Shown: positions 61,210-64,000 of the stretch, piece by piece
Layout: every line of letters begins with the position of its first letter
Position numbering within the stretch: position 1 is the first letter of the stretch
Assembly (NCBI GenBank): GCA_000182565.2
Contig: KQ257462.1
DNA length: 64,000 nucleotides
Direction: 5' to 3' (one strand)
DNA from: Spizellomyces punctatus DAOM BR117
Taxonomy: Eukaryota
Position numbers and translations under genes: made by a program
The notes under the pieces: model-generated
The model's database searches: none
Told to the model about the DNA's origin: nothing
The model's input: the letters and a program-made list of their open reading frames with translations, nothing else

Positions 61210-62616
61210 TCACTTCCATCCCACAATCCCTAGCTCTCGTAGCTGACTTTTCCTGGTTGGTCCAATCTGCTCCTCAATGGTCCCTTCAAACACATCCAAA
61301 CGGGTTGTCGCCTCTTCGACAAGGGATAATCCGCCACGAGTACGTGTAATTGTATGTGGAGCCAAATCTGTCGTAAAACATATATCAGAGAGGGATACAA
61401 AGCTTTTGGTGTCTTGGGGCTTAGGTGGTGTGGTTGTTGTTGATGACGGTAGGGGTTGTTTGGTGGGGGAGTTGGAGGTGGACGATGGTCGGGGTTTTGG
61501 CGGGGTTGGTGGGGGAGCGGATGGGGTTTCGGTTTCGGTGGGTGGTTTTGTTATGGGGCGGGTCATGCGGAGGACGGTGGTGAGGTGGTTCATCATAAAG
61601 TTCTATAGTCAAACGATGCGTAAGCGAATGGCGCTGGGATTAGAAAAAGTGGGGTGCTCTTACCTTCAAAGCCAGGGCTACCAATTTTACGCAGTCTTCA
61701 GACTCTAATCCTTCCGGTAATCCTTCGATTTGCGCTTCCAGAGCCATCGCATCACGCAAGGTATCCAGAGTTGGTAATGCGCGGTCTTCATGGCACATGG
61801 GTGGTATACTAGTGATCTCTGTTGAAAGATGCGTCGGTATGCAAAACTGGCACGAGAAAACCAAACCTTCAGTATCACGCACCTGGCGCCTGCTTTGACA
61901 AGACGCTGTATGTCGGTGGTGGTAATCGATGATGCTGAGGGGCTCGTGCCATTGCAAGGGCCACAGATCGGTTCTTTGAATACAACTAATCAACAGTGCT
62001 CGCGGCGCAGCGTATTAACACGTCCCCCAATCACTTACTGGCAGCAAATTCACAATCCTCTGTCGATTACTGGCCGCAAACGACATGACCTCTCTCCGTC
62101 GCAACTTTACCCTCCATTCAGGCAATAATTCTGTCGCTTTACGTTTCGTCCCTGCCAATGTTGACGGAGCCGAACTCTGCGTCGTCGTGGAAGATGGTTT
62201 ACAAGGGAACTGTGCGTGAGGGACTGTCGTAGTTGGTGGTGGAGCGTTTTTGTAAACGTTGTGGAGGATGGCCATGATGAGCTTGTTGTGAAGAGTGACT
62301 AAACATTTGAAATGATCCGAGCGCAATTAGCTACAATTGCCAAAGTCTGAAGCCCATAAGCCACATCACGTCCTAAAAGTTGGAAATACGCACCCTTTCT
62401 CTTTTGCAAGATAGCTCCCGCAACCGCATCAAACTCTTTCCTCGAACATTTCCCATTAATAAACTCTTTAAATTTTGACCAATACTCGGCTCCCCTTTCT
62501 CCAAGCGCGGCCGCCAGCTCCAGCTTTAGTGCCACCGTATCCTTTCGCACAGTGCGTGGCGGTGAATCGGAGGAGGAGCCCCCGTTGGAGGGCGGGGGTG
62601 TTTGGTGGGGCGCCAG
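61210..62616 (-). CDS. HFI1: SAGA subunit Hfi1/Ada1 (Tad1 domain); no in-frame AUG, putative CUG start
   Basis: RKDTVALKLELAAALG..YWSKFKEFINGKCSRKEFD|LHNKLIMAILHN...MCHEDRALP..LRDAM...GL...CVKLVALAL...VSLSDI. Confidence 0.8.
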
Positions 62617-63115
62617 AATGGAAGCGTTTGAAAGGTCAATGCAAATCCCAGTGCCAATCGAATCACAAAGCACGAGTCAAGGTATAAGTGGGCAAAAGTT
62701 GCCCAATATGGTCAAGTGTCCAGAGGTTCGTGAAAATGCAATTCCTGAGCGGTGCGTGTTTTCGGTTTGTCAAGTTGCTAGTCAAAGCGCTGATCTTGGG
62801 ATCCTGGATGGTCAAACGAGCGCAAAGCTCGGGAATTCGCCGATGTCGGGCGTTCAGATCCTGGTCCCGTGACGTATCACAGTCTCGCGGCTTAGCAAAT
62901 CCAATCGTCGTCGTTTAGAAAGCAACTGCACGGAAGAAGGAAACGATTGCAAAAGAAGTAGAACGCAGTTTCCAAATTGCAAAAAACTACTATATTAGCT
63001 AGGCCCAAAGCAAAACAACACATAGTCCATAATTAGAGTGATCCACCGATTTTACAACTACTTAAAAAATAGATACAGGAATCTGAGAAGAACCAAAATG
63101 AAAACAACCCACTGG

Positions 63116-64000
63116 TTACAGCTGCACTTCAGAGACTGAAAGACCCTTCATTGCCAAAATTTCCTCCACCTCAGCCTTTTTTCCAACTCGAACCCGGCCC
63201 GAATCGTCTACTTTCGCCTGAATTCCCGCCTCATCAAGCATTTGTTCTGACTCGGGTGCAATGCCTTGAGGGGTTAGCGATGCAACAAGATCCTGGTTTT
63301 CAGTGTTACCATCGCAAAGATTGCGAATGGCGAGAATAGCGTGCTCTTTGATATCTAAAGACAACACAAATACATAAACAAACAGATCAACATACTTGAT
63401 ATAAACAAAACACTTACATGGGTTGTTGTCATCCACTCGACATTCGTTCAAAATTACTGGGATACCTCCGATGCGTCGTATCTCGTCTTGAACTTCCTTT
63501 GCCTCGTAGCATAGATTTGCAAGAACTTTTACGGTGTCGGATTTAATCATGAAAAAGCCTTGCGGTGGTACGCTTGATGCTGGAGTTGCATCAGAGCTGG
63601 ATCGCTTAGAAAGTGTACTTCGTGGATACAATTTGGAAGCTAGGTTAAGAAGAGCTAATCGCGCAGCAGGTTACTTCAAAGTTTCACTTTGCATGAAAAT
63701 GGAGCAATCACTTACTCAAAAGCGTGTCTGCAAGTCCCGCTTTGACCAACTTCATTTTTGCATCAGGACCCAACTCGGGGGTCACTCTTGCAAAAAATTG
63801 CAAGATTAGAACTAGCCCATCCACATCCAGACCAAACACGTCTGTGGCTTGCATATTGTCTTTCACTTGTTTGGCATTACGGGATATGGAATGCACGAGC
63901 TTTTTCGTGACAGCTACAAAGAAGATAGCCGTGTCGATACCGATTTCAATAGGTGGACGATCATCGCTGCGGTTGGCTTGTGCATCCAGCATTCCGTCGA
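63116..64000 (-). CDS. ATXN10: Ataxin-10/Ctr86 homolog, 3' part (5' end outside the window)
   Basis: KSDTVKVLANLCY..VQDEIRRIGGIPVILNECRVDDNNP|IKEHAILAIRNLCDGNTENQDLVASL. Confidence 0.9.

Follow-up and report, generated by a model that had tools for sequence, protein, structure and literature searches.

The stretch of Spizellomyces punctatus DAOM BR117 analyzed here, 64,000 nucleotides of contig KQ257462.1 that we refer to as the window, carries on its minus strand the gene for HFI1/ADA1, a subunit of the SAGA coactivator, whose conserved coding sequence appears to begin upstream of any usable AUG. The gene comprises five exons joined in frame: exon 1, which ends at 62394 and runs from 62616 if counted from a candidate CTG start or from 62676 if counted from the limit of its open frame; exon 2 (62298 to 62039); exon 3 (61973 to 61883); exon 4 (61818 to 61664); and exon 5 (61602 to 61210, with the stop codon TGA at 61212 to 61210). 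The four introns are short (61 to 95 nucleotides [nt]), the longest being intron 1 (62299 to 62393, minus strand; 95 nt, GTGCGT...TTTAG). Against the Pfam profile SAGA-Tad1 (PF12767; gathering cut-off, 31 bits), exon 1 alone scored 40 bits (E = 5e-10, profile positions 5 to 54), exon 2 alone scored 32.5 bits (positions 59 to 133), and exon 4 alone scored 23.1 bits, which is below the cut-off (positions 179 to 223). A profile of 23 homologues matched TADA1 (7ktr_J, E = 1.1e-33) as well as HFI1/ADA1 of yeast (6t9i_H, 3.6e-32) and HFI1 of C. thermophilum (9ynu_H, 2.2e-30); exon 1 by itself matched TADA1 weakly (E = 0.03). The translation spliced from the ATG at 62275 through exons 2 to 5 was identical at 291 of 291 residues to a public protein (P0087), named by its source as uncharacterized protein SPPG_06854 of S. 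punctatus DAOM BR117, so that exons 2 to 5 are independently confirmed. The identity of the gene had been proposed in a reading of the DNA letters alone (the original prediction), and the SAGA-Tad1 matches bear it out.

Exon 1, which is absent from the public protein, has the properties of conserved coding sequence. Read from the CTG (62394 to 62616, minus strand), it encodes a Ser/Pro-rich stretch followed by a conserved region, R-K-D-T...LQKRK, and closes with a GTGCGT splice donor. A HMMER search with the 74 residues from the CTG against 1.84 billion protein representatives returned 86 matches at E ≤ 1e-3, 6 of them at E ≤ 1e-10. The closest full-length orthologue (P0005; 434 amino acids [aa], named for a Phlyctochytrium species) shares 33 of 67 residues with exon 1 by BLASTP (E = 4e-21), and its C-terminal end is nearly identical to that of the HFI1 described here. 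An alignment of eight sequences (A1) contained 13 invariant residues within exon 1, including R24, D26, and T27 of an R-x-D-T motif, and all 13 are retained in an open frame of 94 codons. By regular expression, a motif of this type was detected in 74 of the 86 homologues; each of the 74 begins with a Met, and the distance from this Met to the motif downstream of it varies between 2 residues and more than 100. The N-terminal extension of the homologues thus appears, from these comparisons, to be variable and dispensable, whereas the motif is always included, and the sequence evidence indicates that exon 1 is real conserved coding sequence. A homologue search with exon 1 as the query, at lengths longer than or near that of the query, gave no match; with P0005 as the query, the matches were limited to P0005 itself, P0087, and P0088. 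Five metagenome loci (L001 to L005) recovered in a scan with a further alignment (A2) were considered as orthologous DNA and rejected as false positives, since what they carry is an unrelated open reading frame (ORF), about 290 codons long, with an EYW-KFKE word in common. This ORF, located at 739 to 1620 in L001 and at 2809 to 3690 in L002 to L005, is itself conserved among the five loci and unrelated to Ada1, and its C-terminal half looks hydrophobic and membrane-like.

The public model P0087 leaves exon 1 untranslated and begins at an internal Met in exon 2 (ATG, 62275 to 62273), which lies within the domain, as had been anticipated for the next in-frame AUG; P0087 is probably a truncated gene model. 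An AlphaFold2 model of P0005 was examined (alignment of 23 sequences; mean predicted local distance difference test score [pLDDT], 64.7). Residues 1 to 70 of the model are disordered and are followed by three helices (75 to 101, 107 to 117, and 120 to 138; pLDDT 86 to 96) that form the most confident region of the protein. The residue equivalent to the annotated Met (M131 of P0005) falls inside the third helix; in a protein started at 62275, some 60 residues of the conserved, best-folded region would be missing, and the chain would open in the middle of a helix. Model residues 68 to 146 aligned with residues 54 to 135 of chain H in PDB entry 9ynv (Z = 8.2; root mean square deviation, 2.6 Å over 78 residues; 27% identity), an entry titled "HAT module of ctSAGA" (HAT, histone acetyltransferase) in which chain H is described as "putative transcriptional coactivator HFI1." The comparison suggests that the contact between Ada1 and the HAT module would be made by the portion encoded in exon 1. 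A literature search found no paper on the C. thermophilum SAGA structure. We also considered and rejected the idea that exon 1 encodes a histone fold: the match to the core-module portions of yeast, human, and C. thermophilum Ada1/TADA1 (Z = 4.5 to 6.5) involves model residues 258 to 344, and the counterpart of exon 1 in the model is a helical region apart from these, at the N terminus. In a second species, Gaertneriomyces semiglobifer by its source name, the orthologue model P0088 (341 aa) starts at the same internal Met. This start hints either at a shared first exon that lacks an ATG or at a gene model copied by homology, and we treat it as a lead only.

The sequence upstream of the conserved part of exon 1 is devoid of AUG codons. 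On the minus strand, the ATGs near the site are at 63030, at 63023, and then only at 62456, which leaves a stretch without ATG in any frame (62457 to 63020) and a distance of 567 nt between the flanking ATGs. This gap is the longest on either strand of the window (next longest: 477 nt on the minus strand and 365 nt on the plus strand). At an ATG frequency of 0.0194 per nt and about 2,478 ATGs, we calculate that 0.04 gaps of 567 nt would be expected by chance. Because the stretch lacks ATG in all frames, frameshifting would not supply one. Within the reading frame of exon 1, a TGA at 62677 to 62679 closes the frame 21 codons upstream of the CTG, and the 43 open codons upstream of the invariant Arg of alignment A1 (CGA, 62545 to 62547) include no ATG. 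Contigs from two DNA sequencing runs, spanning 62521 to 63299 and 62192 to 62903, show no differences from the window and read CTG at 62616, although these runs possibly derive from the same strain or sample. Each element of the original prediction that concerns this segment was reproduced, namely the absence of a minus-strand ATG from 62461 to 63020, the in-frame TGA, and the context of the CTG (A at −3 and G at +4); the contigs also lack the ATG that it had named as a finding that would overturn it.

Splicing offers no evident means of attaching an AUG to this frame. In the interval 62500 to 62700, the dinucleotide AG occurs on the minus strand only at 62543, 62525, and 62519, and the codon for the invariant Arg lies upstream of the nearest of these (62543 to 62542). 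Given that there is no AG between 62676 and 62548, no acceptor is available to an ATG-bearing exon that enters from upstream. The original prediction had stated that acceptors are missing from 62544 to 62680, and AG is in fact absent from 62745 to 62544; it had named an ATG exon spliced to 62543 as the route that would overturn it, and this route is unlikely, as conserved Arg and Lys codons lie upstream of that AG. A search from 63417 to 62500 for consensus-like GT donors such as those of HFI1 and its neighbor, for GC donors, and for usable U12 signals found none. As far as canonical GT-AG, GC-AG, and U12 signals are concerned, then, no predicted splicing route brings in an AUG. The AG-free stretch itself (62544 to 62745, minus strand) is pyrimidine rich (122 of 202 bases are C or T) and overlaps coding-like sequence; the run from 62746 to 62543 measures 203 nt and is the second longest on the minus strand. 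The third longest (183 nt) lies in a Pro/Thr-rich low-complexity stretch of the last HFI1 exon (61210 to 61602), which indicates that such runs can arise from composition alone.

The upstream neighbor on the same strand is a homologue of ataxin-10 (Pfam PF09759), in agreement with the original prediction, with its stop codon TAA at 63118 to 63116. T-run loose ends in RNA reads mark poly(A) addition sites of this gene at 62969 (7 reads) and 62977 (4 reads), about 140 to 150 nt past the stop codon, and the ATGs at 63030 and 63023 accordingly lie in the 3′ untranslated region (UTR) of the neighbor, as the original prediction had held for the nearest upstream ATGs. Only about 350 nt separate the end of the ataxin-10-like gene from the CTG. 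The RNA run examined (X8) is biased toward 3′ ends; it covers the final 330 nt or so of the neighbor, and its sense depth is zero over 61900 to 62925, so that it is uninformative regarding HFI1 transcription and the 5′ end of the HFI1 transcript; a metatranscriptome run (X9) yielded no aligned reads. Minority variants in the X8 reads, G>C at 63100 (8 of 40 reads) in the 3′ UTR of the ataxin-10-like gene and A>C at 63192 (3 of 49 reads) in its last exon, could reflect strain variation or errors. A few RNA reads running opposite to the sense of the neighbor (depth 0.07 to 0.3) were observed over the HFI1 leader between 62656 and 62763 and are too few to interpret.

If the invariant Arg at 62547 to 62545 must be read and neither an AUG nor an acceptor is available upstream, initiation would have to occur at a near-cognate codon between 62676 and 62548. 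From the TGA to the Arg, the frame contains seven near-cognate codons: GTG at 62673; ATT at 62658, 62646, 62640, and 62619; CTG at 62616; and GTG at 62550. Only the CTG (62614 to 62616, opening an ORF of 373 codons) has both A at −3 and G at +4. A boundary in composition also falls at this codon. The 22 residues after the CTG are rich in Ser, Pro, Thr, Gly, and Asn, like the N-terminal extensions of homologues, and score in the top 0.31% of a null set of 20,000 random stop-free 22-mers drawn from the six frames of the window; the 19 residues before it are rich in Cys, Ile, and Leu, and 80% of the null set scores as high, as for non-coding sequence. The G+C content rises from 0.45 to 0.71 at the same point. 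A crude local Kozak consensus, taken from the first ATG of 19 long ORFs in the window, was uninformative; many of these ORFs are probably internal exons. On the basis of context and the composition boundary, we consider CUG 62616 the best candidate start. Downstream of it, the first AUG (62454 to 62456, minus strand) is out of frame and shares the context of A at −3 and G at +4; the ORF that it opens in the spliced mRNA spans 84 codons and extends past the annotated AUG to 62109. Two more AUGs occur at 62449 and 62429, so that the annotated AUG at 62275 is the fourth in the spliced mRNA, preceded by three out-of-frame AUGs, and it is overlapped by the 84-codon ORF unless transcription starts downstream of 62429.

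A number of observations weigh against the choice of this CUG, and some of them lend weight to other explanations. All 74 homologues that carry the motif are modelled with a Met start, and a non-AUG start is therefore no trait of the family. By our arithmetic, the combination of A at −3 and G at +4 would occur by chance in at least one of seven codons with a probability of about 0.36 and is not significant alone. Codon-usage log-odds over these short segments gave no separation. Stable structure about 14 nt downstream favors near-cognate starts, and a 6-bp G+C hairpin (62579 to 62598, minus strand) does begin 15 nt after the CUG; its fold is not significant relative to 200 shuffled sequences (z = −0.88; 34 of 200 fold as well). 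Initiation could instead use one of the other near-cognate codons, or several together, each of which lies in the open frame that runs from the TGA to the conserved Arg. The GUG at 62550 (62548 to 62550; ORF of 351 codons) has A at −3, stands one codon before the invariant Arg and so would likewise preserve it, and would leave a minimal N terminus of a kind that seems tolerated, given that some homologues have just 2 to 6 residues before the motif; in addition, fungal cpc-1 uses several near-cognate codons (PMC5487733). None of these alternatives, however, combines A or G at −3 with G at +4. The GUG at 62550 has C at +4 and could be reached only by ribosomes already past the better-placed CUG, and the codons upstream of the CUG would add the Cys-, Ile-, and Leu-rich residues that are unlike the extensions of homologues. 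AUU is, moreover, generally a weaker start than CUG. We regard a start confined to these other codons, or shared among them, as rather unlikely. The 203-nt pyrimidine-rich run that ends at AG 62543 resembles the AG-exclusion zone of a 3′ splice site, which would fit an overlooked 5′ exon with an ATG, in or beyond the 3′ end of the neighbor, joined through a long intron to AG 62543 or to a non-canonical acceptor; the ATG at 63023 is followed by a GTAGTT in phase at 62990. Such an intron would measure about 450 nt, compared with 61 to 95 nt for the four introns of HFI1, and its last two codons would have to spell the conserved Arg-Lys in frame by chance (about 0.003 by our arithmetic). The segment upstream of the AG is also homologue-like in composition, consensus-like donors and usable U12 signals are absent as described above, and the putative exon and its donor would sit in the 3′ UTR of the neighbor, upstream of its poly(A) sites. 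Taken as a whole, this makes a missed exon very unlikely.

The remaining explanations place the anomaly in the start codon itself. The start may have been lost recently, or in this strain only, leaving exon 1 as an untranslated or weakly translated relic while the cell uses the 291-aa protein from AUG 62275, perhaps by way of transcription that starts downstream of 62429. Had an ancestral ATG start mutated to CTG recently, the context and the composition boundary on which the choice of the CUG rests would look just as they do. In favor of a lost start, the AUG at 62275, with which the public model P0087 begins, lies in a context of A at −3 and G at +4, and the P0088 model opens at that Met as well; hfi1 deletion strains of yeast and of Cryptococcus exist and have been studied (PMC10744473), so that loss of HFI1 is survivable in those fungi. 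The two truncated models may not be independent, though, because annotation pipelines require an ATG and may be seeded with one another's proteins. The open frame of 94 codons and the full set of A1-invariant residues in exon 1 mean that any such loss must be very recent; the resulting protein would lack roughly 60 residues of the best-folded conserved region and begin within a helix, and three out-of-frame AUGs would precede 62275 if transcription starts upstream of 62456. We judge loss of the start to be unlikely. If an A-to-C change did occur recently, initiation today would most likely still take place at the CUG, which would then be a hypomorphic accident and not a selected device. In favor of an error in the sequence or assembly at the true start, such as a real ATG read as CTG or ATT, a single base change at 62616, or at one of the ATT or GTG codons, would suffice to create an ATG. 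Contigs of the two further runs argue against this by their complete agreement with the window, with the reservation stated above that they may share its strain or sample, and we consider an error extremely improbable.

On balance, we favor non-AUG initiation of some kind as the probable explanation, and we assign a probability of roughly 0.45 to the specific reading in which full-length HFI1/ADA1, of about 373 residues, is translated from CUG 62616 to 62614. The original prediction of an obligate near-cognate start thus stands in its argument by elimination, which the present analysis confirms and strengthens, and in its choice of the CUG, which is the best candidate by context and by a boundary in composition; the GUG at 62550 and a recent loss of an ATG remain as competitors to its conclusion. 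In the proposed mechanism, the 43S complex would scan a leader without AUG in any frame, meet the CUG in its favorable context, and initiate there, presumably with initiator Met-tRNA. The product would open with a short Ser/Pro-rich N terminus and continue into the conserved N-terminal region of three helices. Most ribosomes that fail to initiate at the CUG would do so at the out-of-frame AUG at 62456, which has a strong context; the overlapping 84-codon ORF may thus act as a sink for them, and the annotated AUG at 62275 would yield little of the truncated protein. A weak start might conceivably limit or regulate the level of Ada1, as the original prediction had supposed.

Genes that depend on a non-AUG codon for their protein are known in animals, where EIF4G2/DAP5 (GUG) and TEAD1 (AUU) have obligate non-AUG starts that are conserved across vertebrates and experimentally verified. 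The arrangement at HFI1 would resemble theirs in that a near-cognate start behind a leader without AUGs would be the one source of functional protein; it differs in that their starts are verified, whereas that of HFI1 is deduced from a single genome. Compared with its own orthologues (PF12767; 6t9i_H, 7ktr_J, and 9ynu/9ynv_H), the S. punctatus gene has the same domain, invariant residues, N-terminal three-helix region, and core-module region, and it departs from the motif-bearing homologues, which are all modelled with an AUG start, in having no AUG upstream of the domain. Near-cognate starts, including CUG, are documented in fungi: one study describes N-terminal extensions of Neurospora crassa cpc-1 from CUG, AUU, and ACG and a proposed CUG start of Podospora IDI-4 (PMC5487733). 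In these genes as in HFI1, conserved coding sequence precedes the first in-frame AUG and has no AUG of its own in frame, near-cognate codons stand in Kozak-like context, and the product is a fungal protein related to transcription. In cpc-1, the near-cognate codons work in combination with upstream ORFs, and the extensions that they provide are optional, since the protein initiated at the AUG is functional; the AUG form of HFI1, unlike that of cpc-1, would lose a conserved folded region, which would make the non-AUG start obligate as judged from the sequence. Fungal 6-phosphogluconate dehydrogenase likewise reportedly has non-AUG-initiated peroxisomal isoforms, in which functional sequence is added at the N terminus by a near-cognate start upstream of the annotated AUG, as it would be in HFI1 (PMC7214817). 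There, the alternative isoform provides dual targeting, whereas in HFI1 an integral part of a conserved domain would be restored. The mechanism of near-cognate initiation is therefore already known, and what would be new is an apparently obligate instance in a core SAGA subunit together with the correction of an annotation. Our literature search found no paper naming SPPG_06854, none among the papers listed that combines non-AUG starts with ADA1/TADA1/HFI1, and no ribosome-profiling paper for Spizellomyces punctatus.

If the CUG reading is right, the public 291-aa protein lacks about 80 N-terminal residues, including the conserved three-helix region that a solved fungal SAGA structure models in the HAT module, and the truncated model would mislead both comparisons of domain gain and loss and proteomic searches. 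Gene finders that accept only ATG cut such genes short, and the combination found here, a conserved domain extending upstream of the first AUG, an in-frame stop codon, and no acceptor, would serve as a screen for others. A more far-reaching possibility, which we consider improbable but raise because the same internal Met opens the model of the orthologue from a second genus, is that the AUG-less exon 1 is old and conserved in the chytrid order. The obligate CUG would then be a translational throttle on the one SAGA subunit whose N-terminal helices lie in the HAT module, and the quantity of completely assembled, acetylation-competent SAGA would track how stringently start codons are chosen, as set by the balance of eIF1 and eIF5, by stress, or during the transition from zoospore to sporangium. 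S. punctatus is amenable to transformation (PMC7213984). If a CUG start holds true, HFI1/ADA1 of this early-diverging fungus would be among the few core single-copy coactivator subunits that depend wholly on a near-cognate start.

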